In this document: piece after piece, positions 27,845 to 50,383 of the stretch | Position numbering within the stretch: position 1 is the stretch's first letter | Layout of the letters: every line of letters begins with the position of its first letter | Origin: a virus | Reading direction: 5' to 3' (one strand) | UHGV virus genome: UHGV-1370141 | Length of the DNA stretch: 64,000 nucleotides | Translations under genes and position numbers: made by a program | Notes under the pieces: model-generated | What the model was told of the DNA's origin: nothing | The model's database searches: none | What the model saw: only the letters and a program-made list of their open reading frames with translations

Positions 27845-29803
27845 CTAGCCAGTAACGCCGAATTGATCCCTCATAAACCGCTGAATCTCGAACACCACTC
27901 GAGATAGCTCGAAAAAAACGCGGTCCGGGGAAATCGTTACGATACCACGATACACGCCTTCTTTCTCGCCTTCATCGGCTTTACCACACGCTGGGCAACG
28001 TTGACCCATATACCCGAACACCGCCAGACGGCTACGGTCGTTGTACGTCGCAATAGCGCCTTCGAAGTTAGCCACGTATTTACGATCGGACGACAGTTCT
28101 TCCAGCATCTGGACGATCTTATCGTAATCTTTCTCTACGATAGGTTCTTCGTGGGATTCTTCACCGTCGTAGATTTCTTCCATAACGGTGATAGATTCAA
28201 CCATGTGCGCATAACGGGTTAGACGACGAGCTTCGGCGGTTAAGCGTAAGTGGTCTTCACGCTCACGTTCTGTGCCCTTCTCTGCCAACGCAGAGGTCGT
28301 GGCAGCGTTAGTTTCTTCAATCCAACGTTCGGTGTTGTCGAAGAATTTACCCAAAGTAGAACGACCGAACTTAACGATAATACCGTCTTGTTCGAAAATC
28401 GCTGATGGGTCTTTGATGTGTTCTTCAACGAACTTACGCTGGTCAGCACGGGTGATCGTCGCGTCGTCTTTACCGCGTTGAAGTGCCCACAGATTACGCT
28501 GAATGTCCGTATACAGAGAAGTCCCCATACGGATACAGCGTGCCAGGTTCAGACGAACGTCTTCCTGATGACCGCAACCTTCGTGACCACAAATCAGCGT
28601 CCACGGTAAACCACCTGGGAACTTCGCTTGCATAACGCCGATTAACAGTAACCAGTAGTCAGCAATGTCGATGGTATCCATCAGTACGGTCTTCATGTCG
28701 TTACCTTCGCAGTCTAAGCTGCAATCGGTAACAAACCGTAAAGCGAATTCGATCATGTGACTTAAGTACACACCAGAAGAAGCAGAGAGCATCAGACCGT
28801 AAGTCTGCATCCCAATCTTCGCGGTTTCTAACGCCAGTTCAATATCGAAGTCACAAATCTCGCGCTCCAACGGTGCACGGAAGCCGACGAAGATGCCCGT
28901 GGCAGGCAACCATACCCAGTTAGGAATACCGGATTTACGACGACGGCGCAGGGCTGCAATTGCACCTGTCTGCTGATTGAGACGGGTACTGATCAGACCT
29001 ACCGGTTTATTCATCCCCGGCAACTGTACTCGCTGCTCCCACGCTGTGTCGTCACGCGACAGGGCCACATCGAACGCTTGCAGGTTATTCTGCAAACGCG
29101 GTGGGGACATGTTCAGGGCACGATACAGACGTTCGTACAAATCGCGCTGTTCTTCGGACTTGAACAACATGCGCCCGTCTTTGCTTTTCGGAATACTTGA
29201 GAAGAATTTCTTCAGATCGTTTCCAACCAGGTTCGGGTCCTGGCAAAGACCGATAAGCGTGCCGAAGCTTGCCATTACACTGGCTTCTGAATCCTCTTCC
29301 ATTTCCGAGAACTCTTCGTGAACGGGCTGATCGCCGAAGTTGATACGATCAGTAGAAGCTTTCTCTTTTACTGCGGGTGTCGCTTCTGGTTCGTGATCCG
29401 CCGCTGGTGCATGAGGCTCAGGAGCCGGTGGAACATATTCTTCCCGCGTTTTCTCCGCTACCAGGACAGGTTCCGGTTTACGTTCTTCAACGACCACTTC
29501 TTTACGCTCTACAACTTCAGCAATGACAGGTTGTCCTGTCAGTTCGGTCTGTAGAGATTCAGGAAGGGGTTCTTCTTCGAACGTAGGCGGTTGAAGAATA
29601 GGTTCTTCTTTCACCACGTTCAGTCCTTTGTACGCTTCTTCAGCTTCTGCAAAGGACAGTTGTGGGTTGGCACGTTTAATGGCCATAATCCCATCGTCCG
29701 CTGACATAGTGCTGTAGTCGAGCTCAGGGATGTGAACCTGTACAGGTTCCGTCTGTAGACGACGGCGTCCATTGCCAGGACGTTGGTCTAATGAATCAGA
29801 CAT
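27845..29803 (-). CDS. hypothetical protein (652 aa), E/P-rich low-complexity N-terminal third
   Basis: ORF track. Confidence 0.6.
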   Translation of the reverse strand: MSDSLDQRPGNGRRRLQTEPVQVHIPELDYSTMSADDGIMAIKRANPQLSFAEAEEAYKGLNVVKEEPILQPPTFEEEPLPESLQTELTGQPVIAEVVERKEVVVEERKPEPVLVAEKTREEYVPPAPEPHAPAADHEPEATPAVKEKASTDRINFGDQPVHEEFSEMEEDSEASVMASFGTLIGLCQDPNLVGNDLKKFFSSIPKSKDGRMLFKSEEQRDLYERLYRALNMSPPRLQNNLQAFDVALSRDDTAWEQRVQLPGMNKPVGLISTRLNQQTGAIAALRRRRKSGIPNWVWLPATGIFVGFRAPLEREICDFDIELALETAKIGMQTYGLMLSASSGVYLSHMIEFALRFVTDCSLDCEGNDMKTVLMDTIDIADYWLLLIGVMQAKFPGGLPWTLICGHEGCGHQEDVRLNLARCIRMGTSLYTDIQRNLWALQRGKDDATITRADQRKFVEEHIKDPSAIFEQDGIIVKFGRSTLGKFFDNTERWIEETNAATTSALAEKGTEREREDHLRLTAEARRLTRYAHMVESITVMEEIYDGEESHEEPIVEKDYDKIVQMLEELSSDRKYVANFEGAIATYNDRSRLAVFGYMGQRCPACGKADEGEKEGVYRGIVTISPDRVFFELSRVVFEIQRFMRDQFGVTG

Positions 29804-32459: not shown

Positions 32460-34559
32460 TTACTCAATAATCGTTGCTGCGACAGAATTGTCGTACAACG
32501 AAGCAGGACGTTTACGTGACGTATAGAAACGTACGTTGTCCAAGTTCTTCTGCTGTCCCTCAAACAACAACATCGGGATTGCAGAACGCATCGCAATCAG
32601 TGTATTGTGATCTTCGAAGCGTTTTCCTTCTGCGGCATCGGCATCCTCACTGTCAAACCCTACTGCCGGGAATGGGTTAGTAGGTGACTCAACACGAGAG
32701 ATTGCCAACATAATCGCGATGTGCGTCATCGGAATCCCTTTGAGCTTACGTTGGATATATTTGAACACGTAGAACAACGCATGAGTACATTGTTTTTCCG
32801 TGGCACCACGCATCTGAACGAGGGTAATCGGTTTAACCTTACCACTCTTCTTGCTCAAACGCATTGACTCGTCCGAGAACTGTTCGAAGTTATCTGACTT
32901 GTCCGATGCTACCGAACGTAAAATCAATTCCAACCCTGCTACAAACTCCGCCATAGATTCAGACCGATTCGTATAAATTAGGATCGGCCAGGACGGTTTC
33001 CATCCTTTTAGCGGAACACGCACCGTTTTCTTGCTGGGGAATACGAGCTTATCACGATTCTTCAAGAAGAAGCGAAGGAACGACTTAGAGAAGTTACCGC
33101 AGACGCCCATTCGAACGTCAATCGGATCTTCTGCCAGGATGTTCCCTTCTGCATCTAAACGAACAAACGTAAGGTCATTAATTTCCGGGAGTGCCGTTTC
33201 ATCAATATCGTCCAGGTCTTCATGATACGCAATCTGGCTAATCTCTGAATAGACTTCATCCGAAATTACCAGTTGGTATTCATCCCAGGTACCGTATTGC
33301 GGCTTCTCCAGTAAACTAATCCCTTTAACGGAGTTGTGCTTATACTCCGTGAGATAATCACGCATTCTTGGCGACAAGACCAAGTTCAGCAGATAACGCA
33401 GGAAGTCAAGGTGTTTCGTCGACAGAATACCTTGAGTGCCCTTTTCTGAAATTGCGGTTGACGCAAGGTGACCCGGTGATGTGCCAGGTGACAGGTTATA
33501 AATCAAGTCACCCATACACGTTGCACAGATAGTCTGTCGTGACATCCCTTTGCAACACATCGCGGTACGGAACTCGATAGGTTTGTTCAAGACTTTCTCA
33601 AACTCACCGTCTTCGAATCGTAACCACGGACCACCAGTACCTTCGAAGCGATAACGCATTCCTTTCATCGCTTTGAATTTCGCTTCTTCCAACGGCGAAT
33701 TCGTAAAGGTGTGTCTGTGTACGTGATGTGTACCACAGTCTTCGTAATCGAAGAACATCAGCACGTTAGCCGCTAACTGCAACTTACGCGATGCGTACTC
33801 TGCGTCTGCAATCTTGTCGGTATTATACAGGTGAGAACGCGATGTCGCACCTGCTTCTTTCAGTCGACTGATAACAGAATGCAAGCCGGTGAAGAAACCT
33901 TCCCATACCTGGTTAGAGTACACACGGGAGTCAATCTCTGAAGTCTTACCACGAATGTAAGCCTGGAGAATCTGATCCATTTTCAGTGTGCGGTCTAACA
34001 CAGACATGACAACTGGGTTGTTTGAGAGTCTCGGATCTTTAAAGATTTTCTCAATGAGTTGATAGGCTTCTTCTACCTTATCGTTACCTTCCTCATCGTA
34101 ACCCGTCGGATAGAGTTTAGACCATTCGATAATCAGCTTGAAGTTTTCATGCTGATAAATCTCCATCATCGTATCGTAGTCAATGGTAACACAATACGAC
34201 AACAGGTTTTTCACCGTCAGGTTAAACGCGTTTGCATAAACGTGCTGCGATAACAGGTAACGGGTATCGGCCAGATCCACTCCGGCCTTACGTGCTGCTA
34301 CAGCTGCCAACGACATAAAGCGCAGATGCGCATCGTCAGTTGCCGTGTCGCCATGCTTATACGCCATGTTCGACGAGATTGGCACTTGGGGATAAAACTG
34401 GGTTAATCCCCAATACGGCCAGCTCAACTTAATGTGTCGACCAGACATTCTCAACGTGACCCCATCGTCGAAGGACACGTCGTAAACGCCCCGAAGTAGC
34501 CACACCTGATCCGAATTCAACTTGCACAAGTCTCTTACGTGAACCGGAGTCGCCTTCAT
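32460..34559 (-). CDS. RNA polymerase beta'-like subunit, C-terminal module
   Basis: CATCMGDL ... ASTAISEKGTQGILSTKH resembles bacterial RpoC CAHCYGRDL ... AAQSIGEPGTQLTMRTFH (recalled). Confidence 0.7.
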   Translation of the reverse strand: MKATPVHVRDLCKLNSDQVWLLRGVYDVSFDDGVTLRMSGRHIKLSWPYWGLTQFYPQVPISSNMAYKHGDTATDDAHLRFMSLAAVAARKAGVDLADTRYLLSQHVYANAFNLTVKNLLSYCVTIDYDTMMEIYQHENFKLIIEWSKLYPTGYDEEGNDKVEEAYQLIEKIFKDPRLSNNPVVMSVLDRTLKMDQILQAYIRGKTSEIDSRVYSNQVWEGFFTGLHSVISRLKEAGATSRSHLYNTDKIADAEYASRKLQLAANVLMFFDYEDCGTHHVHRHTFTNSPLEEAKFKAMKGMRYRFEGTGGPWLRFEDGEFEKVLNKPIEFRTAMCCKGMSRQTICATCMGDLIYNLSPGTSPGHLASTAISEKGTQGILSTKHLDFLRYLLNLVLSPRMRDYLTEYKHNSVKGISLLEKPQYGTWDEYQLVISDEVYSEISQIAYHEDLDDIDETALPEINDLTFVRLDAEGNILAEDPIDVRMGVCGNFSKSFLRFFLKNRDKLVFPSKKTVRVPLKGWKPSWPILIYTNRSESMAEFVAGLELILRSVASDKSDNFEQFSDESMRLSKKSGKVKPITLVQMRGATEKQCTHALFYVFKYIQRKLKGIPMTHIAIMLAISRVESPTNPFPAVGFDSEDADAAEGKRFEDHNTLIAMRSAIPMLLFEGQQKNLDNVRFYTSRKRPASLYDNSVAATIIE

Positions 34560-36799
34560 TATTCTTCGCCCCTTTTCATTTTCACCAATTCAAACCCTTC
34601 ACAGCTGTGAATGTTTTTCATCATTCTGTCAATCTGCGAATCTCCTAATGGGAGCTTATTCCGGTCTACCAGTACGCCCGGATTGGAAGGAGTTTGAGAT
34701 CGGTACAGCCCTACTAAAATCTCTCGATGCACAGCAGGGTTATTTGCCCTATCGTGAACCTCTTCGTAGTTACCTGGACCATAACCCGCTAATAGTCGTT
34801 CTTCCGAAGGACCAGCCCATTTCAGCGTTTTATAGTTTACCGGATACGAACCACGTCCTTGGTTAGACGCATCAATCGTGCCCAGGTAGTTCAGGTACAT
34901 CGACGAAATACTTGAGAATTCACGTCCCGTTTTATCAAGCCGTAATGTTTCTACACCACCCACGTAAAACTCGTCTTTTGTCCATTCCTGTTTACCATCG
35001 TAATTGGTAATAAGCAGTTTCGACTTACGGGGTTTAAACTCACCTAAACGTTCACTGATTTCCACCGGAGTGTCATCAAGTTCGTGAGGTAAGTAAATGC
35101 GGATGGTGAAATCGTAAATCTCTTTAAAGAGTTCTCGCTGCAAATCCTCCGTAGGATGCGTAGCCTGTAACGTGTTCGCCCATTCTGGATTATAGCGTGA
35201 AAGGTAGTCCATCAGGATTTCCCAACACTCGCCAATACGCCCTTCATCCAGCATCGGTTTAAGACGCATCTTCAGTTGTTCAGATGCTGCTGACCAATAC
35301 ATGTGGAACAGCGCGGCGTAAGTAGAACGACGAATTACGGCGTTCATTGAACGTAGTACGTGAACACGTTCGCCGAACTCGTTAATTGGCATCTGTTCAA
35401 CTGGCAGTACACGACCCACAATCCCTTTCGTACCCGAACGGTCGGTAATCTTAGAAGACACCGTCACCGGGATCGGATAACGTACCGCGATACGAATTGT
35501 GTACGTGTTGATAGGATCGCTTAATCCACGCTGAACAGGTGAAGTCAGTTTAGAGATAATCTGTTGACTTACGTTCTCTTTACCGTATTCGCCGCGACGA
35601 ATTGCATCTTCAATCACTCCGCGAATTTCTTCACGAAACTCTGCGTAGACTTCGTACGTTTCAGATGCGAAAGCTTTCTCCAGCAACACACACGCTTTGG
35701 GAGACCAGATAACGTTTTTATCTCTCGACACGGAGAAATAGAAGCGAACAATCGCATTGTAGTAGTCCTTTAACGCCAATGCGTATTTGTCAAGCTCACG
35801 TTTGTTCTCTTCAGTACAGTTAATGTTATTCGTTCCATTACCGCATGACGTTTCATCACGCCAAACCTGAATATCAACAATGCGTGTTCCGCTACGTTCC
35901 ATCAGTTCGTGGTTGTTTTCCAAACGTGCTTTATAGTGTATCGGATCGGCATCCACGTAATCACAGTTATCGAAGAACGGAGAAACGTGTTGGGTTTCTC
36001 CTAAGGTTGCATCGATCGCTGCGTACAGGTCATCGAAACGACGAGAAGCGATAACTAACCCGTCATCACGAATCGCTTCACCCACGTCTGGGAAATAGCG
36101 CGGTACACGATTCCCCTCGGGATCGTTATAGCCGTAGGTATCCAGCAAGAATTCATCTTCACGTAAGGTTTTCTCAATAACTTTCAACCCATACCCGTGA
36201 AGCTTCTGTGCCGCTTCTTCGGAAATCGTGTAGGAATCTTCGATAATGTCTGGATGTGAAATGGTAACCGTTGGCAGCACCGCACTGTCTGCGAATTCAC
36301 CATCCACCATGCACGGCATTGTCGTCAGGATTTCATCCTTTTCTAACTGGTCGGTTTCACCACGTAACAAACTGCGCAGTTTTGGCGATTCCCATTTCTC
36401 GGAAGAGAACACGTTATCGTGATTAGTATAAAAGTTAATCTCGATAACATCTATCATTGTTTTGCCCGGAATACGGCATTCTGCACGACGGAAGAATATC
36501 GCGTGTTCCAGCGCACGGGAATCCCCACGACGGCCATAACGGGTAAACGTTGCGCGACGTTGTCTACCTTCCTTAGTTGTGTAATGACAGATGCTCCCAC
36601 TGTCTTCCACAATATCGTTAAACAGAAAATCGTGGTAATTGGTATCTGCTCCCGTAAAGTGAGGTGACGGCTCAGGATGATCAATCGGCACCGAGGACTT
36701 CATATGGTTACCTACCATCGATGCCCTTGCACCTGACACCTGTGCGATATTAACTTCACGGTCAGCGACGCTGCTCAATAGCTCAACTGGCGTTTTCAT
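34559..36799 (-). CDS. RNA polymerase beta-like subunit, C-terminal module
   Basis: SKITDRSGTKGIVGRVLPVEQMP resembles RpoB [24 protein letters not shown] (recalled); RBS AACCTAAAGGAG. Confidence 0.7.
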   Translation of the reverse strand: MKTPVELLSSVADREVNIAQVSGARASMVGNHMKSSVPIDHPEPSPHFTGADTNYHDFLFNDIVEDSGSICHYTTKEGRQRRATFTRYGRRGDSRALEHAIFFRRAECRIPGKTMIDVIEINFYTNHDNVFSSEKWESPKLRSLLRGETDQLEKDEILTTMPCMVDGEFADSAVLPTVTISHPDIIEDSYTISEEAAQKLHGYGLKVIEKTLREDEFLLDTYGYNDPEGNRVPRYFPDVGEAIRDDGLVIASRRFDDLYAAIDATLGETQHVSPFFDNCDYVDADPIHYKARLENNHELMERSGTRIVDIQVWRDETSCGNGTNNINCTEENKRELDKYALALKDYYNAIVRFYFSVSRDKNVIWSPKACVLLEKAFASETYEVYAEFREEIRGVIEDAIRRGEYGKENVSQQIISKLTSPVQRGLSDPINTYTIRIAVRYPIPVTVSSKITDRSGTKGIVGRVLPVEQMPINEFGERVHVLRSMNAVIRRSTYAALFHMYWSAASEQLKMRLKPMLDEGRIGECWEILMDYLSRYNPEWANTLQATHPTEDLQRELFKEIYDFTIRIYLPHELDDTPVEISERLGEFKPRKSKLLITNYDGKQEWTKDEFYVGGVETLRLDKTGREFSSISSMYLNYLGTIDASNQGRGSYPVNYKTLKWAGPSEERLLAGYGPGNYEEVHDRANNPAVHREILVGLYRSQTPSNPGVLVDRNKLPLGDSQIDRMMKNIHSCEGFELVKMKRGEE

Positions 36800-36862: not shown

Positions 36863-37186
36863 ATGCTTGAAGATTTTATTACCCTAAAAGAAATCATACC
36901 TGCGCCCTATACCAGCACCTGGAAAGTGCTGCACGATTACACAGATTTTCTGCGTAAACACCCACAAACTAAAGTAGAAACTGTAGACCCACGATTCAGT
37001 TATCCTGAGATTCACAATTTCTACGCTTATTGCAAACTGAAAGGTTATGCCGAAAACATCATCTACCCGATGATGCTACTCAATAACTTGGAAGACCCTA
37101 TGAACTTCACCCCTGAGATTACAGAGCTGATAGTTCCAGATGCCGGGGTCGTCGCCAGTATTCTTAGCACCATCGTAGACGATTAA
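36863..37186 (+). CDS. hypothetical protein (107 aa)
   Basis: ORF track; followed by bidirectional terminator. Confidence 0.5.
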   Translation: MLEDFITLKEIIPAPYTSTWKVLHDYTDFLRKHPQTKVETVDPRFSYPEIHNFYAYCKLKGYAENIIYPMMLLNNLEDPMNFTPEITELIVPDAGVVASILSTIVDD

Positions 37187-37221: not shown

Positions 37222-38601
37222 CTAGTACGAGCTCTTAAACGGACTCGTAGAAGCACTAGCAAATGGGTTGCTTGTACTACTACCAAATCCGCTAGACGAA
37301 CCAAACTGAGGCTGGCTGCCGAAAGAGCTGCCTCCGAATGATGAACCCCCGCCAAAAGAGTGCCCGCCACCAAACGTATTCGACAGCGAGTTCGGTTGAC
37401 CGAATCCACCTACGTCACCAAAACCGCTGTTCTTACGCTCGCCACCGAAAGCATCTACTACAGAAATCCGTCCTACCATTCCTGTACCAGCCAGGTTAGT
37501 TGTGTTGTGTTCTTCCACAAAACGCTGCATTGCTGGAGAAAGATTACCGAAGCTGTTCGTTGGAGTCATCCGTTGCTTACGCGCACGGAAGAACTCTACC
37601 GGATCGTCCAGGTTCGGCTTATCCGCATCAGACGCCTTCTTCGTCGGGATCTGTTCCGTTGCCGACGATCTGTCAATTCTGAACTCACGGGCACTGGTAT
37701 CACGCTCAGGATTGTCTGAACGTGGACCGGTGTTATACGGTAAGGTCTGGATGACATTATCGTAAATCTCCATGTTGTCCAGCTGTGAAATCCATTCATC
37801 GTCCAACGGGCGCAGTGGTGTGTGGTCACGTAGCCCTTTCACTACGTTATTGTAGTTTACCACGTACTGTGCCCAACCGCGTGCTAACGACCCGAAGTAC
37901 GGACGGGAATCGTTAGAACCGGTGACACTTGGATACCAACCGAACACAGTAGTCAGCAGGCGATGAATAATCACCTTATCCTGTTTACGTTGAAGCTTCA
38001 CCGAGAAGTACATTGCAGTACCGTCTAAGGATTCTTCTTCGAACATATGGCGATAATTAGCCACACGGTTAAACTTCACACCGTCGATAACTAAATCAGA
38101 TGCAATAAAGAGCTGGGTAACTTTGTGCTTTTTATCGCGCTCCAATAAGCCATAAACGTATTGTTTAACTGCTTCCCAGGATTTTACCAAACGATCGTCA
38201 AACGTCGGATCTTTCATCCCTTCACAAATCTGTTCCGTTAAGAACTTCTTGTACGCCGCAGAACGAATTGCTTTACCACTGGCAGCCGTTTCCAGAATAG
38301 CGTCAATCAACGCAAAGGAACGAATGAACAAATTCGCATTGATAGATTTCTTCAAGAAACGGATGGTGCCCGATTCACCGGCCAGCACAGATTCACAGAG
38401 AGGATGGAATGCCTGACATTCACGTCCATCGTCATCTTCCATTCCTTTCTTAATCATTGCCGACGTTGGAAGCGCCAGGCGGCGCTTCACTTTGTTGTAG
38501 GTAAATTCTGCTGGCTCACCGTCATCACGGGTAAGCAAATCGTTCTCGAAATCGAATCCTTGTGATTTAAGAAACGATTTATAGAATTCAATAATTTTCA
38601 T
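37222..38601 (-). CDS. hypothetical protein with ~90-aa C-terminal FG/SFG-repeat tail
   Basis: C-terminus GFGDVGGFGQ...FGGGHSFGGGSSFGGSSFGSQPQFGSSSGFGSS. Confidence 0.65.
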   Translation of the reverse strand: MKIIEFYKSFLKSQGFDFENDLLTRDDGEPAEFTYNKVKRRLALPTSAMIKKGMEDDDGRECQAFHPLCESVLAGESGTIRFLKKSINANLFIRSFALIDAILETAASGKAIRSAAYKKFLTEQICEGMKDPTFDDRLVKSWEAVKQYVYGLLERDKKHKVTQLFIASDLVIDGVKFNRVANYRHMFEEESLDGTAMYFSVKLQRKQDKVIIHRLLTTVFGWYPSVTGSNDSRPYFGSLARGWAQYVVNYNNVVKGLRDHTPLRPLDDEWISQLDNMEIYDNVIQTLPYNTGPRSDNPERDTSAREFRIDRSSATEQIPTKKASDADKPNLDDPVEFFRARKQRMTPTNSFGNLSPAMQRFVEEHNTTNLAGTGMVGRISVVDAFGGERKNSGFGDVGGFGQPNSLSNTFGGGHSFGGGSSFGGSSFGSQPQFGSSSGFGSSTSNPFASASTSPFKSSY

Positions 38602-38622
38602 TTATTAATCCTTGATATTTTT

Positions 38623-40326
38623 TTACTCGCCGAAAGCGCCGAATACACCGCCTGCGGTGGAAATGTTGTCAGGAGCACCAAAGCTACCGAAAGAACCGAA
38701 GCTATTGGTAGGCGCAGCCGCTGCCGTAGGAATGTTGGACAGGATATTAGTCCGGTTTTGTCCACGGTTGAATTCCTGATAACCTTCTTCTACTTTGTTC
38801 ATCAGCTGTGCCGTTTCAACAGCCAACTGATTGGTGTAGTTAAGGTCAGTTGTCACCCCACTGTGGATACGCGCTTTCATGAACGATGCGAAAGTGTAAT
38901 ACTCAGGCATCTCACCATCGAGTTCAATCTCAATGCGCGTTACCACACCAACGATACAAGTTACTGTCATGCAGCAACGGATACGGTTGTGTTTGGTCAC
39001 TTGTAGCATCAAACCTTGGAGATCGCTCATGAAACGACGTGCTAATACATCCGGCAAACCTTCGTCTGTTAATGCACCGAGAGTGTGGTGAGCAACTTGC
39101 AGCATCGGTTGTGTGGAAATATCCGCCATGCGGTTATCGTAGAAGAAGGTAATCTCACCAATCAAGTTACGGGACACGATTGGGCCGAGTACCATCGCCA
39201 AATCAAACGCAACCAGAGAACCTTGGGTAGAATAGTTATTACGTCCTACCCAATCGTCGGTACGTTCAATCTCACCGAAACCACGGCGGTCAGCTACCGC
39301 TAGAGATTGCGAAATCGCAATATCCAAATCTTGCGGGTTCATGATTGCGTTACGCAAATCAGCTAACTTAAACGCTGCGCGGTTGACTGCGTTCCAACCA
39401 CCAGACACATCCGACGTCGCGTTCGTTAACGCGGCACGGAAAGCACGGATCAGTTCGTAGTTATTGAAATTGCGCATTACCCCGATTTGGTTCAGCTCAG
39501 ATTCCACGCCAAGAGAATGGTCACCTGCAAAGAAGCTGTCTACCGTGCTCAGCTCTGTTTCAATCCCCATCGTGTTGATGAAAGAATTCGCAATCGCTGT
39601 AACAAAAGACTCAGGACGAGTCAGTTGACCAGACATCAGCTGCGGCGCGGATTGACAGTTCGCAGAGATAACCGTTTGGTCATCGTAAGTGAACTTCTCA
39701 CCTGCGTTAATCAGATTACGAATCGTGGATGCTGCTTTTGCAGTAGAGATTGCATCGATGGTGTGTTCACTGTAGCTATCTACTGTCAGAGTTTTAGACA
39801 GCACGTAGTTATCAACCAGACGGAAAGAATCTGGGTTGATACGACGTCCCCCGAACGCATCGGTAATGTACGTACACTGCAAGCCGTAGATTTCATTGAT
39901 GTATAACACCATGTCATCTGGCAGGTGGTTAAATACGGAACGCTCTGCCTGGGAGGTATAACCCGAGACGACATAACGGGTTTCCTGCGTACGACTTTCG
40001 TTAATCACGTTACCTACGATAATCGCAACGAAGTTATACACGCCAGTGTCACGGGAATTATACTGGAATTGTACCGGACGAGATTCATCATCGCTTACGT
40101 TAATCAGCGGAGTTTCAACGCCGGTCGGAGTATTATCAAACCCTACAATCTGCCCTAACGCTTCTTGATAATCTCGAGTCTTGGTCGCATTCTCGCCGTG
40201 TTGCGCCACAACGTTTACGAGTTCATCTAAAGCGTACTTAGATTCAAAGAACCCAATACGACGACGAATCTGTTTAGGAATTTCGTACACTGGGTTGATT
40301 TGAAGCTTTAGAAGTTTCATTGCCAT
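38623..40326 (-). CDS. hypothetical protein with C-terminal SFG-repeat tail
   Basis: C-terminus SFGSFGSFGAPDNISTAGGVFGAFGE; RBS CTAAAGGAGTATTTA. Confidence 0.65.
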   Translation of the reverse strand: MAMKLLKLQINPVYEIPKQIRRRIGFFESKYALDELVNVVAQHGENATKTRDYQEALGQIVGFDNTPTGVETPLINVSDDESRPVQFQYNSRDTGVYNFVAIIVGNVINESRTQETRYVVSGYTSQAERSVFNHLPDDMVLYINEIYGLQCTYITDAFGGRRINPDSFRLVDNYVLSKTLTVDSYSEHTIDAISTAKAASTIRNLINAGEKFTYDDQTVISANCQSAPQLMSGQLTRPESFVTAIANSFINTMGIETELSTVDSFFAGDHSLGVESELNQIGVMRNFNNYELIRAFRAALTNATSDVSGGWNAVNRAAFKLADLRNAIMNPQDLDIAISQSLAVADRRGFGEIERTDDWVGRNNYSTQGSLVAFDLAMVLGPIVSRNLIGEITFFYDNRMADISTQPMLQVAHHTLGALTDEGLPDVLARRFMSDLQGLMLQVTKHNRIRCCMTVTCIVGVVTRIEIELDGEMPEYYTFASFMKARIHSGVTTDLNYTNQLAVETAQLMNKVEEGYQEFNRGQNRTNILSNIPTAAAAPTNSFGSFGSFGAPDNISTAGGVFGAFGE

Positions 40327-40359: not shown

Positions 40360-42021
40360 TTACTGATTAAACCACGCCACTTCTTCACATTTCTTCCTGT
40401 TCTGAATTAACAGGAATTCTGCTAACATGTTCTGAAGTCGTGGGTGTGGTGTGTAGCCTAACATCACTTCTCCACTCCGAAGCATTCTTGCTGCTTCAGG
40501 TGTTGCCCTGAGATTGAAGTTAAACGGCGCAATATGTTCACGTACCAACAACGTCAAAGACGTCTTCAATGTTGACTGTTCGTAGATATTGCGATTGGTA
40601 CGGTATGCCTGAGGATAAAATCTATCCGATTTTATTTTGATCTCATTATCAATAGGTTCGATTGGATAACCCCCATTGTTGGGATCTAAAACCATTTCAC
40701 AGCTTAGCAACTGTGCAATCTCATGCATTCCGTAGTAGATATAAATCGCTTGTGCGATCCCCATTGCATTCTTAAACGCAGCAGCGTCAATGTCCTTATA
40801 GGTTCTGCGGTCAGCAAAGCGATGCAGTGCGGCTGCAACCAACCACTCGTACAGTTCGTAGAACGGATATTGATGATTCAGGTGAATAGAATCAATCAGT
40901 ACCTTAGCATCCGCAGGAGCGATATCGATCCCTAAGGAACGAACCACACGACGATAATCGTTGAAAAACTCTTGGGTACGAACAAACTCTTTCATCGGCG
41001 CTTTAGAGCGCGCTTGAACCAAGTCTATCGCACAAGTTTTCCCTTTCTCACCGTTAAACATAATCTTTTCAGGATGCGCTTTTAAGATGACGTTCTGTGA
41101 CGAAATCTTTCCTGCAAATCCTGTTTCGATTTCCTGCTTGATATTAAAGTACATCCCTGCAACGATGTTGTTCTCCACCATCGTACCTGGAGGTAACTCT
41201 GCGCCGATGAGTTTCATGGCGATTAAGCGAATCACCGCGAATGCCATGATGTACTCTTCCACCATATCCGTACCGTAACCACAGATAGAGGCCAGCACCG
41301 TTAAGTTCGCACTGTTCGGTCCTTTATTGCCACCGTCCTGTACTTTCGAAATCACCGACACTAAGAAGTCCCGCAATTTACTGATTGCAGGTAGTTGTGC
41401 TATCTCGGTGTCGTAAAGCAATTCCATGCAATGGGTTAAGTTATAAACGCTTTTCCGCTTGGAGTCCACAGCGGCGCGTGTTGTTGGGAAAGCATCCATG
41501 ACCAAGAATACCGGAATGAACGGTTTTACCATCAACGACAGTATGACCAGTTCGTAGTAGTCTTGTACGATATACGTCATCTCTTTCGGATAGTTAGATG
41601 ACATTTCTTCGTAAGTTTCGTGGACGTTTTGAGGAATCCACACGGAGCTTTGTGGATAGAGTTGGCGGAATCTGTCCGCGTGGTGGAATTTGGCAATTTG
41701 TGCAACAATCTCTGGCGCATGTTTACGAATCGTTTCGGGTTCTTCATTACCCAGCATTTCTAACTCTTCGTACGCCGAGAATAATTCTTCCTTTTCCTCC
41801 GACGTTAACGTTGACCAATAACGTTCGATTTCCATGAACATAATTTTGTCATGGGTAACCACTTTGCCGGAGCTATCGCGTACGTCTGGCACATTCGCAT
41901 CTTTGCGTCCATTACGGAATCCGTTAAACCCTACTTCCTTATCACCGTAACTAATAATGAGACGGTCGCGATTTTTCTCAATACGCATTTTAAAATCTCC
42001 AGGGATAACATAGTCGACCAC
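40360..42021 (-). CDS. hypothetical protein (553 aa)
   Basis: ORF track; GTG start. Confidence 0.6.
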   Translation of the reverse strand: MVDYVIPGDFKMRIEKNRDRLIISYGDKEVGFNGFRNGRKDANVPDVRDSSGKVVTHDKIMFMEIERYWSTLTSEEKEELFSAYEELEMLGNEEPETIRKHAPEIVAQIAKFHHADRFRQLYPQSSVWIPQNVHETYEEMSSNYPKEMTYIVQDYYELVILSLMVKPFIPVFLVMDAFPTTRAAVDSKRKSVYNLTHCMELLYDTEIAQLPAISKLRDFLVSVISKVQDGGNKGPNSANLTVLASICGYGTDMVEEYIMAFAVIRLIAMKLIGAELPPGTMVENNIVAGMYFNIKQEIETGFAGKISSQNVILKAHPEKIMFNGEKGKTCAIDLVQARSKAPMKEFVRTQEFFNDYRRVVRSLGIDIAPADAKVLIDSIHLNHQYPFYELYEWLVAAALHRFADRRTYKDIDAAAFKNAMGIAQAIYIYYGMHEIAQLLSCEMVLDPNNGGYPIEPIDNEIKIKSDRFYPQAYRTNRNIYEQSTLKTSLTLLVREHIAPFNFNLRATPEAARMLRSGEVMLGYTPHPRLQNMLAEFLLIQNRKKCEEVAWFNQ

Positions 42022-42121: not shown

Positions 42122-42763
42122 TTAGATAATGTCGTCAAAACTGCTGTCTGGTGCGGGTGCTTTTGTTGCCTGTTGGTTGTAACCACCGCCGTTATTGTTG
42201 CTATTATAGCCGCCACGACCGTAGCTACCGCCACCAGTGTTGTTGAACTCGCGAGGTTTATAGTTGTCACGGAAATCTTCCAGGAAGATATCAGCATTCT
42301 TAATAAACGCACGCAGAGTACGTTCTGCCAGTTCTAAATCAGAAACCTGTTGGCCATTACGGAAAACACGATAACCTTTCGGATAGGTGAAGTAGAATTT
42401 CTTCTGGCGTGCGCCAGCTCCTGGGATCTCACCACTGATAGCCATGAACGGCGTCAGGTTTTCATCGCGGCCTACGTGCAAGCTAACTGGCGATTTCTTC
42501 CCTTTAGCATCTTCCCATTTGTGAACGATTTTCTCTGCCTTAACCAACACGGTGCGCAGCGTTTCGAAAATGTCCACACAAACGGTATAGCCAGCAGTAA
42601 AATACAAACCTTCGCCTTTACCGAAAGAATAGCTGAACTTCATCAGCTCAACGTCACCGTTGAATTCGTTAAGCTCGATACCCAGTTTACGGGTACGTCC
42701 CTGCTGATCTGGTTCGGTTTGCGGGTAAAGATATTTTTCTTTAAAGAAGTTTTTGTTAACCAT
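42122..42763 (-). CDS. SSB-like protein candidate
   Basis: Gly/Asn-rich linker followed by acidic C-terminal tip ...PAPDSSFDDII, reminiscent of the SSB C-terminal tail; N-terminal fold not verified. Confidence 0.4.
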   Translation of the reverse strand: MVNKNFFKEKYLYPQTEPDQQGRTRKLGIELNEFNGDVELMKFSYSFGKGEGLYFTAGYTVCVDIFETLRTVLVKAEKIVHKWEDAKGKKSPVSLHVGRDENLTPFMAISGEIPGAGARQKKFYFTYPKGYRVFRNGQQVSDLELAERTLRAFIKNADIFLEDFRDNYKPREFNNTGGGSYGRGGYNSNNNGGGYNQQATKAPAPDSSFDDII

Positions 42764-46498: not shown

Positions 46499-48456
46499 CT
46501 ACCCCGCCATTAAGATTAATTCTGAGTCGATGGCGATACCCGCCTCCAGATCTTCTTCGGTATCGCGTAAGAAACGGTTTTCCATGCTGATAAGCTCATT
46601 GTGTAACACCATGCTGCTAGACACTTCGTCTACGTTTGTGCTGGACATAAATCCGTTATCTGGGCGATAAGCCAGCGCCAAATCCATCTCCGTGGTATCG
46701 ACTAAAAGTCTAACCTGTAATTGGTCGCCGTCGAAATCCTGTTTGTCCACTCCATTCCTTTTGGAGCAGGTGTGCAATGACACCCTCCCATGTTTTCACA
46801 TGGGCACAGACTATATCATAACCGTAGGTATTGCTACCCGTAGGTCTCCCCCACTTCGCCGCTAAACTAAGCAGCTACTCTACTCGGTTTTACCCTTTCG
46901 ATAGTCGTTGAACGATTTTCATCGCTGCTGGTTATCCATTATCACAACCCTTAGCATTATTGGTTAGCATAGGCTATCTTACGAATTGTTTCTGACTTTC
47001 GCCACCCTGTCGGGATCGTAAGCTTTAGGAGTTTCCAGCAATTCGAGGGATACGCACTAGAGGTTTCCCGTCTAGTGGGCCAAATTTTAGCATTCGGAGC
47101 TTTGATGACGCGATCGGAGATACGTAACGAACACTGTGTAACATCAGGGTTAACAGCTGAGATAAATAATGTCTGAATAGACAACTGTACAAGCGTCGGG
47201 TTTCGTAGCGCTGATATCATCAGGCCGTAACCGCCACGAGACTCCTTAATAAGTTCGTTGATAATTTCATGAACCAACGGTACGTACTGCATTGATGCAA
47301 ATGCAATAACACGTTCACACTGCCGTGGTGTGAAGTTCCGTCGACCGAGTTTGTTTTCAATAGCTACAGATTCTAACGTCACTAGCCAACGCCAAGGTGC
47401 AATAACCTTCATAGCGTCATGCGGTTCTGAGATTGGAGAGATTGTTACACGACCACCCCACGGGATGTGTGTTGAACCTAACTTGGCACGATAGAATCCA
47501 GGTTTACCTTCCATCACCTCCTGACGATGGTCAATATAGAAGTACGCTAACTGGCGATTTGCTTTTAATGCGCGACTAATAATGAAATGGGTTGGGATGC
47601 GTCGTGCATTAGTATAAAGTAACGCGATGTTCTTAACCGCGTCTATTGCACCGGTATAAACAGGATCGATAAAGATACCCTGACGTCGTTCCTCCGTAAC
47701 GATCAGTTTGGGTGAAATGATTGGAAGATGAACCGGAAAGAAAGTGTGTGATTGTTCTTCGAAGAACTTTTTCCACTCTAAGCGAGTACGTTCGCTCTCA
47801 TATCGGTTATTTTTCGTTGGTGGATAAATTTCTTTCCAGACTTCAGGAGAAGTTAAGATATTGAATATTGTTCGATGGTGGTCAATAAAATTCCTAATGC
47901 CGCGTGGAACTTGATACTCGCTAAAGATACGTTTGATTATTCGGGATCGAGTACCTTCGTCTTTATCAGGTTTATAGCACGGATCTAACATCCACATCAA
48001 TAAATCAGAACCACGTTCTACGGTCACTTTGTTTCGGTTAAACTTCTTAAGTTTAGAACCGAAGAAAGCGTTAAACATCGACCAGAATCGTGGGTTAATA
48101 AAGTTGCCTATTTCCTCCGGGGCACGAATCCAGACTTCTGAAACAATACGATGTTCTGTCACTACATAGCCGCAGGTAGGACATCGCATACCGAGATTAT
48201 ATCGATGAACGATAGGTGCTTCACAATCAATACTACAAATGGGTGCCGAATTTAGCGTCTCGTCGACTGTCCGGTTCTGTAAGATTCGGTTAATCAACTC
48301 TGACGTCTCAATGGTGTCTTTATATTTCGCAACATCATTGATAATCATCGGCGGTTTATAGCCCTTTTCCTCCGCCTCTTTGAAAGCGTCACGTAACATT
48401 TTATCGTGACTGATTAATCGCCCTGATACACCGAAGTATTGTAATCTGTCTTTCAC
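46499..48456 (-). CDS. RNA polymerase beta'-like subunit, N-terminal module; intron-interrupted (exon 1 ~47150..48456, exon 2 46499..~46783)
   Basis: exon 1: Zn finger CSIDC...CPTCG, GKPGFYRAKLG...GGRVTISP, ISALRNPTLVQLSIQTLF; exon 2: HTCSKRNGVDKQDFDGDQ ... FMSSTNV. Confidence 0.65.
46784..47150 (-). other. group I self-splicing intron (no internal ORF)
   Basis: minus-strand GTTCAACGACTA (R-like) and GATATAGTCTG (S-like) P7 elements, P9-like hairpin before exon 2, frame change between exons, no RBS; boundaries approximate. Confidence 0.65.
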
Positions 48457-48544: not shown

Positions 48545-50383
48545 TCAGACAGGGCTGTAGTTACCGGAAGCGAATGACATGTTGTAGTCACTGCCGAAGG
48601 AGTTCGGGCCGTTACCAGACAGAGTGAAGTTTTCACCGCCGTTGTTGAAGAACAACGTATTAGCCAGGCTATTGACTGCGGTAACACCATTCACTTGGAA
48701 GATGCAGTTATCACGCACGTAGTCCAGCAGCGCTTTGGCGAATTTCGGGTTGATTGCCAAATCGGTGGACTCGCCAGTTACGACCGGCTGTTTGCTGCCG
48801 AACAGGGAAGCGGCCAGCTTCAGCAGGTACAAACGCTGTTCAGTCGCGTTGAACTGACGGTGTGAGTAAGATTGCGCGTACAGGTAAGTGTAGGCATCGT
48901 GTTGGTTATCACCAACTTTGCTCAGAACAGACACCAGGTCCTGATCCTGGAAGCTACGTTTCTGGCTGTTGCTGAAATACTGACCGGAAACAGTCGGTAC
49001 GCCAGCGATAACAACGTGGTTGCAGGTGATGGTATTAACTTTCAGCATTTCAGCGAAACGCTGCGTGAACACCGTAGCACCTTTCGGAGCCATGTTGTCC
49101 AGGATGGTCAGGATGTTAGACAGTGTACCAGTGTTACCCTGGGAAACTTCACTGAACATCGTGGAGAGACCACCGATACCGTTACCAGCACGATGGTTCA
49201 CAACCAGCGCAGCTTCTGGGTAGGCGAACATGTTCAGGCACTCTTCGATAGCTTCGCGGTTGCCATCGATTTTGCTCAGGTCCGGACGTTTGTCACCCCA
49301 CTCTACGTATTCCATAACGCGGGAGAAACGACGATCGGTTTTGTTGAGAGAGTGCATGAAGCGTTCACGCCAGCCACCGATAGCGGCGATTTCTGCAAAG
49401 GCGGCCAGTTCAATCAGCTGACGTTCGATTGGTACCATAGCCCCGGAAGACTGAGAGTCCATCAGAGAAACAACAACTTCTGCTTGCAGCTGTTTGTAAT
49501 CCTGTACGCCATTTTCAGGTGCACGGCGGCCAGTGTAACGCAGGTTGATGTAACCCACACCCGCAACGCTCGGATAACCCTGAACACGTTCAGAGGACAT
49601 CAGCGTCGGGTTAGTATCGAAGCTACCGGTCTGAGTGTGTTCAACCTGAACCATCAGGTCAGCACGTTGTGCAGAGCCGTTAACGTCAGTCAGAGAACCT
49701 TCGTCTACCGCAGTTACCTGTGCAACGAAGCGATCGCCACGAGTCAGTTTCAGCTGACCCAGGTAGCCCGGAATACGGCCAAAGATACCCAGAGTCAGCT
49801 GACCCATCAGCTGGATAGCCCACTCTTCGGTCAGCGTTTTACCCAGGTCTGGAATGCAGTTCATTACCATGAATTGCACAGACGACAGGTTCTGCTGTTC
49901 GCAGATTTGTTTGGTGATGGAATCCATTACGCCAGCCTGACCGAACAGAGATGCCAGGGTGTAATAAGTTTCTTTACCGTTGATTTCACGGAAGCGTACA
50001 GACTGACCGTGTTCGAAGAACAGGATACCGTACATCCAGTGGCTGCCGTTTTCATCTGCTGGCGCAGCAACGTATGCCGCAGAACCCATTTCTGGATTCA
50101 CACCATCGATAACACCGCAGCGGAATTTGCTCAGGTACGGGTTACGTTCAACCATCTTCGCAATCAGCGCGGTGAAATGTGAAGCGGCAGAAACGTAGGA
50201 CATATAGCCGAACGCTTTATCGAAAGTGGAGATATTCTTAGACATACCACCGAAAGCATTTGCTGCGTGGGTGTTATCCACACTGCCTGCACCAGCACCT
50301 ACACCACCAAAAGACGGAGCCGGGTCTACACCAGCAGCGCCAGCATTTACGTTGTTAGGAATTTCGTTAAACTCTTTAGCCAT
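48545..50383 (-). CDS. chmA: 612-aa protein with Gly/Ala/Ser-rich terminal extensions; chimallin-like nuclear-shell candidate (alternative: structural protein)
   Basis: flexible N- and C-terminal segments, strong RBS, own terminator, immediately upstream of the RNAP beta' gene; identity inferred from context only. Confidence 0.45.
   Translation of the reverse strand: MAKEFNEIPNNVNAGAAGVDPAPSFGGVGAGAGSVDNTHAANAFGGMSKNISTFDKAFGYMSYVSAASHFTALIAKMVERNPYLSKFRCGVIDGVNPEMGSAAYVAAPADENGSHWMYGILFFEHGQSVRFREINGKETYYTLASLFGQAGVMDSITKQICEQQNLSSVQFMVMNCIPDLGKTLTEEWAIQLMGQLTLGIFGRIPGYLGQLKLTRGDRFVAQVTAVDEGSLTDVNGSAQRADLMVQVEHTQTGSFDTNPTLMSSERVQGYPSVAGVGYINLRYTGRRAPENGVQDYKQLQAEVVVSLMDSQSSGAMVPIERQLIELAAFAEIAAIGGWRERFMHSLNKTDRRFSRVMEYVEWGDKRPDLSKIDGNREAIEECLNMFAYPEAALVVNHRAGNGIGGLSTMFSEVSQGNTGTLSNILTILDNMAPKGATVFTQRFAEMLKVNTITCNHVVIAGVPTVSGQYFSNSQKRSFQDQDLVSVLSKVGDNQHDAYTYLYAQSYSHRQFNATEQRLYLLKLAASLFGSKQPVVTGESTDLAINPKFAKALLDYVRDNCIFQVNGVTAVNSLANTLFFNNGGENFTLSGNGPNSFGSDYNMSFASGNYSPV

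Follow-up and report, generated by a model that had tools for sequence, protein, structure and literature searches.

We analyzed a stretch of 64,000 nucleotides from the virus genome UHGV-1370141 (the whole of this stretch is called the window below) and, within it, two adjacent genes whose products of 459 and 567 amino acids (aa) both end in low-complexity tails rich in Phe-Gly (FG) dipeptides. The genome is that of an uncultured chimallivirus, a jumbo phage of the Asesino/SPN3US type. The nearest isolates are two phages of Erwinia, Asesino and phiEaH2 (60% and 73% amino-acid identity), together with the Salmonella phage SPN3US. The IMG/VR contig 3300045988_078609 (224.8 kb) matches the window at 100% identity. 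Comparison with PHROG profiles showed that four proteins of the window share their families, each over the full length, with proteins of phage PhiKZ (Table 1). The synteny gp67-68-69-70-71 is unbroken in the window. Upstream, at a distance of about 8 kb, is the gene of chimallin (ChmA). The gene order SbcD-gp66-ChmC-gp68-PicA-gp70-(small reverse open reading frame)-non-virion RNA polymerase beta subunit is common to the window, PhiKZ, PhiPA3, 201phi2-1, Goslar, RAY, Eowyn and Asesino.

Table 1. Features of the window; orthology is assigned by homology, and folded or disordered regions are predicted
Feature	Coordinates	Strand	PhiKZ counterpart	Basis
PicA/Imp1 ortholog, phage-nucleus protein import factor, 567 aa	38623..40326	-	gp69	phrog_3141, hhalign, fold, synteny
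Predicted disordered FG tail of the PicA ortholog, aa 531-567: NIPTAAAAPTNSFGSFGSFGAPDNISTAGGVFGAFGE	38626..38736	-		pLDDT<50
Ortholog of PhiKZ gp70 / PhiPA3 gp64, 459 aa; folded domain 1-286 and mostly disordered C-terminal region (predicted)	37222..38601	-	gp70	phrog_3520
FG-repeat tail of the gp70 ortholog, aa 385-459, 9 xxFG units plus PF motifs	37225..37449	-		composition, shuffles
Longer, mostly disordered region (predicted) of the gp70 ortholog, aa 287-459	37225-37743	-		AlphaFold2
gp68 homolog, 553 aa (non-virion RNA polymerase subunit / sigma-like factor), between ChmC and PicA	40360..42021	-	gp68	phrog_3209; BLASTP 7e-10 to gp68
ChmC/Imp6 ortholog, 213 aa, Whirly-type RNA-binding shell protein, N/G-rich tail, acidic tip ...DSSFDDII	42122..42763	-	gp67	phrog_3284, 4e-50
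Chimallin (ChmA), major nuclear shell protein, 612 aa	48545..50383	-		57% identity over 590 aa to Asesino gp039; phrog_8316 4e-242
Disordered N-tail of ChmA, aa 1-53, PSFGG and NAFGG, upstream of the NTS motif FDKAFGY	50225..50383	-		sequence comparison
Non-virion RNA polymerase beta subunit, downstream end of the block	34559..36799	-	gp71-73	phrog_3295 6e-254; Pfam RNA_pol_Rpb2_6
Small conserved opposite-strand open reading frame, 107 aa, between the gp70 and RNA polymerase beta genes	36863..37186	+		phrog_3455 4e-34
Non-virion RNA polymerase beta' homolog	46957-48456			
652-aa protein	27845-29803	-		phrog_8054

Taken together, the homology searches indicate that the 567-aa protein is an ortholog of PhiKZ gp69, known as PicA or Imp1. 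It matched phrog_3141 over its full length (1e-125), the family to which gp69 itself was assigned with an E-value of 3e-179. Pairwise BLASTP against gp69 was not significant. Because this comparison failed to confirm gp69, the identity was tested independently with hhalign, using an alignment of 20 enterobacterial-phage homologs against one of seven PicA proteins (PhiKZ, PhiPA3, 201phi2-1, Phabio, Psa21, RAY and Goslar). The two alignments matched over 458 columns with a probability of 98.1% and an E-value of 7e-14. The AlphaFold2 model has a folded core (predicted TM score, pTM, of 0.72), and its fold matches in BFVD were restricted to jumbo-phage proteins of about 500 aa (E 1e-16 to 1e-23, TM 0.57-0.71). 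These include an Eowyn protein of 505 aa, which is the length of the positional PicA ortholog of Eowyn. A search of the PDB with the model matched nothing, and Pfam gave no match for this protein, for the 459-aa protein or for ChmA. The gene is placed between the homologs of gp68 and gp70. PhiKZ gp69 is essential, binds the shell of the phage nucleus, forms a single punctum on it and picks its cargo through distinct surfaces; the shell punctum and the requirement of PicA for selective import are known in PhiKZ and Goslar only. By homology, the 567-aa protein would likewise be an essential, shell-bound and punctum-forming selector of nuclear cargo.

The 459-aa protein is, by the same kind of evidence, an ortholog of PhiKZ gp70 and PhiPA3 gp64, and thus a protein predicted to be associated with the nuclear shell. 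It matched phrog_3520 with an E-value of 7e-130, PhiKZ gp70 belongs to the same family, and BLASTP against gp70 gave 3e-14. A tblastn search with this protein found PhiKZ gp70, PhiPA3 063/064, 201phi2-1 gp126 and Goslar gp173. AlphaFold2 predicted its domain 1-286 with a predicted local distance difference test score (pLDDT) of about 90. In PhiPA3, gp63 (PicA), gp64 and gp61 (ChmC) are located at the nuclear shell, expressed early and absent from virions (10.1101/2023.05.18.541317), and gp63 and gp64 co-purify with ChmB. The literature searched assigns gp70 no function and no name. A preliminary description of the two genes, made from the sequence alone, had tentatively linked them to a phage nucleus, and the orthology to PicA/Imp1 and gp70/gp64 bears out this link.

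Both FG tails are genuine features of the two minus-strand reading frames, as this description had proposed. The 459-aa protein contains 12 FG dipeptides, nine of which fall within residues 385-440 as xxFG units (DAFG, SGFG, GGFG, NTFG, HSFG, SSFG, SSFG, PQFG and SGFG), followed by NPFASASTSPFKSSY. In the 567-aa protein, five FG dipeptides lie in residues 543-566 and the C-terminus reads ...NSFGSFGSFGAPDNISTAGGVFGAFGE. The density is thus nine FG per 56 residues and five per 24 residues, and when each protein was shuffled 20000 times, the observed FG clustering was matched in 0/20000 shuffles for both. The repeat tail of the 459-aa protein had been put at about 90 residues; we find the FG-rich part to be shorter, about 75 residues (385-459), with S20 G19 F11 and only 3 K/R and 2 D/E. 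Among the 37 residues of the PicA tail, 2/37 are charged. Disorder prediction, suggested earlier as a check, gave a consistent picture: AlphaFold2 assigned a pLDDT below 50 to residues 531-567 of the PicA ortholog and to most of residues 287-459 of the gp70 ortholog, where two short, moderately confident helices interrupt the region. Within the 64-kb window, the only real open reading frames with at least two FG within 45 aa of either terminus are those of ChmA, PicA and gp70.

The origin of the repeats was also addressed at the nucleotide level. Tandem Repeats Finder detected no DNA tandem repeat beneath the FG motifs, the DNA of the two tails is linked only by imperfect matches of 12-18 nucleotides, and the codons for F, G and S differ between repeat units. 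For these reasons the repeats belong to the peptide level and do not stem from recent slippage or gene conversion; DNA-level repeats and gene conversion are thereby ruled out as an origin for the repeats, and equally for the likeness of the two tails.

The FG motif is kept in uncultured relatives that are 80% identical (L005/L006, P0002/P0003), and its distribution is restricted to the clade of the window, the CR5/Phobos clade and scattered uncultured lineages; elsewhere LG (Leu-Gly), NSLLD, Q/M/P or R/D tails are found. Asesino, phiEaH2 and SPN3US have no FG, and carry tails of the GGLGGGLGGG type at the same place in both proteins. The Huxley/ChrisDB/Caitlin clades have NSLLD/SLLG tails. In CR5, Phobos and Derbicus, PicA carries GFSFG..GFKL and gp70 carries NPF/FFG, and the tails of PhiKZ, PhiPA3 and RAY are rich in M/Q/P. 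Alignments by tblastn end at about residue 390/459 and 535/567, and the tails cannot be aligned between clades. The preliminary description had reasoned that homologs lacking repeat tails would speak against a function of the FG repeats. The homologs bear out this objection by half: FG is missing from the closest isolates, whose tails have LG repeats in its place, and other clades have repeats of other types.

The gp70 N-terminal domain alone was then searched against 1.84 billion cluster representatives, which yielded 353 clusters at 50% identity. All of the full-length family representatives examined (146/146) have about 100-290 C-terminal residues of reduced complexity past the N-domain, and the median entropy is 3.46 bits in the tail vs 3.97 bits in the core. 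Some of these tails are more nucleoporin-like than that of the window protein, with SLFG/GLFG in N/S/T/G spacers, MFGAPQQAS repeated five times or NPFG arrays; other tails of the family are prion-like (PQQGY) or of mixed R/D charge. Dipeptide-repeat tails of R/D or R/D/S, such as DRRDRYDRDDRYDRRDRDYDRRDRRDRYDR, occur in a large share of the uncultured gp70 family (P0115-P0180; L041, L045), and the cognate PicA tails are likewise rich in R/D/S. Such R/D(S) repeats are reminiscent of the mixed-charge domains found in proteins of eukaryotic nuclear speckles.

The PicA and the gp70 of one phage carry tails written in a matching motif grammar. We compared the last 40 aa of PicA with the last 80 aa of gp70 in 24 clades, consisting of one representative for each of 18 clades (less than 75% identity of the PicA core) and six contigs picked by the type of their gp70 tail alone. 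The cosine of the centered compositions was 0.472 for proteins of the same phage vs 0.002±0.074 for permuted pairings (0/50000). Shared 3-mers averaged 3.67 within a phage vs 1.58 in permuted pairings (z=6.9), and shared 4-mers 1.75 vs 0.47 (z=6.8). The folded cores, used as a control, showed no co-variation (cosine -0.05). The same was true of the ChmC tail, which is equally low in complexity and encoded in the same gene block; its values against the PicA and gp70 tails were -0.06 and -0.05. These two controls rule out that the co-variation stems from a genome-wide bias in composition. Among the six added contigs, the PicA tail clearly mirrors the gp70 tail in 5/6 and loosely in the remaining one (L040). 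Their gp70/PicA motif pairs are NNPFG/NPFG, with arrays in gp70 and a PicA tail ..GGNPFGTNGGGNNNPFGGLKF; SMFG-SLFG/LFG, with the PicA tail DNLFG..DSLFGGG..GDLFGGG; MFGAPQQ/GLFG; RD/DDDRDDRR, where the RD-rich gp70 tail faces ..EDDDRDDRR..; and R-D-S/RSRSSRS, where the R/D/S-rich gp70 tail faces ..RSRSSRSNRRRGS...

A further likeness concerns the extreme C-termini of the two proteins. They match in the Pseudomonas phages PhiPA3, 201phi2-1 and Phabio (L025/L026/L022: ADLGLL/GGLGLL, ANLGLL/GMGLI and DLGLL/GLGLI, PicA being given before gp70), and are likewise alike in L016 (DSFNF/GGFSF) and L018 (QPFSF/NNFTF). A BLOSUM test on the last six residues gave 6/20000. These ends may represent a shared C-terminal anchor motif, which the phage of the window is without.

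Two other shell proteins have low-complexity tails, in agreement with the earlier remark that Gly-rich tails occur nearby: the ChmC ortholog has a G/N-rich tail, and the chimallin homolog has a G/A-rich N-tail with SFGG and AFGG. The ChmA gene is the separate reading frame 48545..50383, which excludes chimallin as one of the two FG-tailed reading frames, and it lies upstream of the homolog of the non-virion RNA polymerase beta' subunit. The relative of ChmA in Asesino, gp039, was verified as ChmA by the formation of rings of the green fluorescent protein fusion (PMC11724907). No Pfam match and no PDB sequence match was found for the ChmA of the window, whereas several relatives at 40-57% identity carry PF25677, a model that apparently misses this ChmA clade. 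The FG clustering in the ChmA N-tail is not significant by itself (p about 0.08, shuffles), and consequently only the concordance of F or L across phages is informative. The N-tail contains PSFGG and NAFGG in the clade of the window, GFSVG in Phobos/Derbicus, and APLGG, GGLGGGLGG or LGGLGN in the L-type phages. The choice between F and L agrees across the ChmA N-tail, the ChmA C-terminus, the PicA tail and the gp70 tail, in two separate F-type clades as well as in the L-type clades; this pairing covered the enterobacterial group. A search for related loci with ChmA as the only query protein found just the source contig and one contig nearly identical to it, and the NPFG, LFG and RD lineages are therefore not part of the pairing. 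In 201phi2-1 the lattice assembles without the ChmA N-tail (10.1101/2022.02.14.480162). We also compared the PicA C-terminus with the CTS2 segment of the cognate ChmA. The two are alike in the Kwan and CR5 clades (NFKL/GFKL vs SNFKL), and a weak 'FAS..SP' similarity is seen in the phage of the window. No CTS2-like ends of PicA or gp70 were found in PhiKZ, PhiPA3 and 201phi2-1, and a strict mimicry of CTS2 does not hold across all clades.

The tail of the ChmC ortholog fits the type described for PhiPA3 gp61 (ChmC/Imp6), in which the C-terminal tail is required for condensate formation and acts with RNA (PMC11077065). The N/G stretch and the S/D/E-rich acidic tip that characterize this type are present in the ChmC ortholog and in neither of the two FG tails, which are S/G/F- or A/G/F-rich. 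The C-terminus of the ChmC ortholog ends in an acidic-hydrophobic tip (..APAPDSSFDDII) like that of single-stranded DNA-binding proteins, and all ChmC orthologs examined have a similar [FY]D[DE]x-hydrophobic tip (DEDMPSF, DDEIPNF, FADDLPF, SYDDFV). This suggests that the tip is a conserved C-terminal docking peptide, separate from the N/G-rich condensate region.

We propose that, on the chimallin shell, the matched tails bring PicA and gp70 together into an import hub, a reading to which we give an even chance. Each protein has a folded domain followed by a low-charge tail of stickers and spacers that is predicted to be intrinsically disordered, the stickers being Phe-Gly in the clade of the window. 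Matched tails would bind one another through weak, multivalent, like-with-like contacts; this tail-to-tail association of PicA and gp70 is what we infer from the co-variation of their sequences. With its long tail, gp70 would act as the scaffold and PicA, with its short tail, as a co-scaffold or client, while the one or two motifs of each chimallin protomer would anchor the assembly. The import machinery would thus be concentrated in a punctate hub on the shell, and coarsening would give the single PicA punctum. In its FG version, the assembly would behave like a miniature cohesive phase of the Nup98 type. Aromatic-Gly, aliphatic-Gly, Q/N/M/Y-rich and R/D mixed-charge sequences are all classes of self-associating low-complexity sequence. 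Since the grammars found belong to these classes and a single pocket is unlikely to be re-specified among all of them, like-with-like cohesion is favored. Engineered Nup98 repeats form selective phases with SLFG, with GIFG and even with motifs that have Leu only, provided that hydrophobicity is kept, and the entry of clients depends on motif identity (Ng et al. 2023, PMC9918544); these results parallel the switch from F to L in the phage tails.

Several observations weigh against such a hub. His-tagged Imp1 of PhiKZ co-expressed in E. coli pulled down gp67 and not gp70; weak multivalent contacts between Imp1 and gp70 could have escaped the pull-down. The bioRxiv paper on the Imp proteins places gp70 among the nuclear (interior) proteins, while PhiPA3 gp64 was reported at the shell. 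Furthermore, gp70 does not appear among the strong hits listed for the antisense screen in PhiKZ; it may be dispensable or may not have been included, and the antisense and transposon-sequencing papers searched do not state whether it is essential. With 37 aa and 5 FG, the PicA tail is short, and the PicA proteins of Goslar, RAY and Eowyn have little or no low-complexity tail. The signal in ChmA amounts to one or two residues per tail. The clades of the co-variation analysis are partly dependent, the permutation tests remove phylogenetic non-independence incompletely, and the tails are known from sequence and predicted structure alone.

The main rival is docking through short linear motifs, in which the repeats would be ligands of one folded pocket (for example in chimallin, in the PicA or gp70 core or in ChmB) and would tether the proteins to the lattice without a condensate; the tails of PicA, gp70 and ChmA would then share a motif by competing for, or occupying, the same pocket. 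We consider this a serious but clearly less probable account, perhaps one chance among several. Motifs such as NSLLD and NNPFG are quite specific, ChmA itself assembles via tail-in-groove contacts (NTS, CTS1, CTS2), and both the matching ends of PicA and gp70 in several clades (ADLGLL/GGLGLL, DSFNF/GGFSF, QPFSF/NNFTF) and the CTS2-like ends of PicA in some (NFKL, GFKL, NFTL) speak for docking. Against this, the pocket would have to be re-specified from aromatic-Gly to aliphatic-Gly, Q/M/P-rich and R/D-rich ligands across lineages, and many tandem copies with degenerate spacing better fit multivalent cohesion. Moreover, the ChmA C-termini of the Pseudomonas phages (..SSFY, ..SGFY, ..GTWY) are unlike their PicA/gp70 ends (..GLGLL), and those of PicA and gp70 in the phage of the window differ from each other (AFGE vs KSSY). 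A bolder version of the cohesion idea is a convergent barrier resembling the nuclear pore: gp70, PicA and the chimallin N-tails would condense into a lineage-specific selective phase through which cargo licensed by PicA partitions, and the diversity of grammars would insulate the nucleus from proteins of competitors and from host defenses. We hold this to be improbable at present.

An equally doubtful explanation is neutral drift of low complexity, the tails being flexible spacers or entropic bristles whose composition wanders through slippage and mutational bias, and whose similarity between neighbors comes from shared bias or gene conversion. It would account for tails that are unalignable between clades and change freely in composition, and for PicA orthologs that are nearly tailless. 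However, the tail is present in every one of the 146 full-length representatives examined from the 353 gp70-family clusters, the nucleotide comparison speaks against it (no tandem repeat, imperfect 12-18 nucleotide matches only, varying codons), the ChmC tail and the folded cores do not co-vary, and NNPFG or NSLLD in both proteins is unexpected from bias alone. A coincidental linker composition, which the preliminary description had left as an option, is disfavored by the co-variation of the tail motifs of PicA and gp70. That description had also named plain virion components as the outcome that would overturn its view. Gly-rich repeats do occur in some phage fibers, and one BFVD match is labeled 'major capsid protein' (a label that is probably wrong). 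A role of the two proteins in the virion or its assembly, with fiber- or linker-like structural tails, is nevertheless highly improbable: PhiPA3 gp63 and gp64 were not found in virions by mass spectrometry, are early and localize to the nuclear shell, PicA is a genetically defined import factor, and the genes lie in the block of the non-virion RNA polymerase and ChmC, not in a structural module.

How folded proteins get through the closed lattice of chimallin is the chief question about the phage nucleus still to be answered: no pore has been seen in the shell, and PicA/Imp1 is without a recognizable fold or mechanism. The tail grammar ties PicA to gp70, an uncharacterized but conserved neighbor, in a way that can be read from sequence and is partly echoed on chimallin. 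Co-assembly into a hub would give gp70 a testable role as import-hub scaffold and would explain the single PicA punctum. Should the tails form a selective phase, evolution would have arrived at the FG-barrier principle a second time, independently; should they only tether, they would still set the way in which the shell recruits accessory proteins. In the searchable literature, which did not extend to the final journal version of the Imp1 study, no paper combines the phage nucleus with an FG repeat. The PicA literature searched describes no tail motif or tail function, reviews of 2025-26 do not mention the tails of PicA and gp70, and for this gene block only the N/G-rich tail of ChmC is discussed. 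Judged by the literature searched, the co-varying tail system of PicA and gp70 is previously unremarked, and it resides within known shell and import proteins of the phage nucleus.

Some observations on the surroundings of the two genes are added here. A reading frame with the position and orientation of the small opposite-strand frame of Table 1 is annotated in Asesino (gp50), 201phi2-1 (gp127), Goslar (gp172), RAY (gp246) and Eowyn, and is also called in uncultured contigs. The 652-aa protein has an acidic, P/E/V-rich N-terminus of about 170 residues of low complexity, followed by a folded part that contains Cys, and has no relation to the FG tails. In two uncultured relatives, reading frames for LAGLIDADG/Hom_end homing endonucleases of 910 aa (L040, 15195-17927) and 867 aa (L045, 15042-17645) lie directly downstream of two genes of the non-virion RNA polymerase beta type. 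These may be insertions of the intein or intron type, comparable to the known case of PhiPA3 gp65-66.

With PicA/Imp1 as known from PhiKZ gp69, PhiPA3 gp63 and Goslar gp174, the 567-aa protein shares the PHROG family, profile homology over about 460 columns, the predicted fold class, the gene position and a co-encoded ChmA. It differs by its low identity to PhiKZ gp69 (about 16%) and by its tail, which is an FG repeat in the phage of the window, whereas gp69 ends in a short Q/P-rich stretch and the Goslar and RAY proteins have almost none. The members of the gp70 family (PhiKZ gp70, PhiPA3 gp64, 201phi2-1 gp126) have in common an N-terminal domain of about 290 aa, a position directly after PicA and a long C-terminal tail of low complexity. 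The tails themselves differ: that of the window is S/G/F-rich with nine FG units, those of PhiKZ, PhiPA3 and RAY are M/Q/P-rich, Asesino and SPN3US have LG-rich tails, and many uncultured members have R/D-rich ones.

Two comparisons can be made within the shell. The NTS and CTS segments of chimallin are also terminal extensions of a shell protein that mediate protein contacts, and the ChmA tails of the window share the F-type motif; they are, however, single ordered docking peptides, whereas the tails of PicA and gp70 are repetitive and predicted to be disordered. The N/G-rich tail of ChmC is comparable in that it, too, is disordered and belongs to a shell-associated protein encoded in this gene block. 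Its type, N/G-rich with an acidic tip, is conserved in all lineages, unlike the tails of PicA and gp70, with which it does not co-vary.

The comparison with nucleoporins, drawn in the preliminary description, holds for the chemistry of the tails. Like the cohesive FG nucleoporins of the GLFG type (Nup98/Nup100/Nup116), they are disordered by prediction, nearly uncharged and F/G/S-rich, with Phe-Gly stickers in S/G/N/T/Q spacers, and they are placed on the gatekeeping machinery of a DNA compartment; their phase behavior here is a prediction only. Four relatives in the gp70 family (P0109, P0110, P0111 and P0234) have SLFG/GLFG units in N/S/T/G spacers of roughly 10 residues. The likeness does not extend to size, density or conservation. 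The tails have 37 and 75 residues with 5 and 9 FG, spaced by about 3-10 residues, while domains of the Nup98 type comprise several hundred residues, and the engineered Nup98-type repeat used in PMC9918544 is 52x12 residues. The mean FG spacing is about 7 residues in the 75-residue tail and about 3-13 in the 37-residue tail, against spacers of roughly 10-20 in nucleoporins; P0109-P0112 come near the nucleoporin-like spacing, but across fewer than 100 residues. In the phage orthologs FG is replaceable by unlike grammars, no transport-receptor system is known for the phage, and PicA itself recognizes cargo through folded surface patches. Neither protein showed sequence or fold homology to nucleoporins. 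The resemblance is thus functional-chemical only, and the two proteins are not nucleoporins but members of the PicA/Imp1 and gp70/gp64 families.

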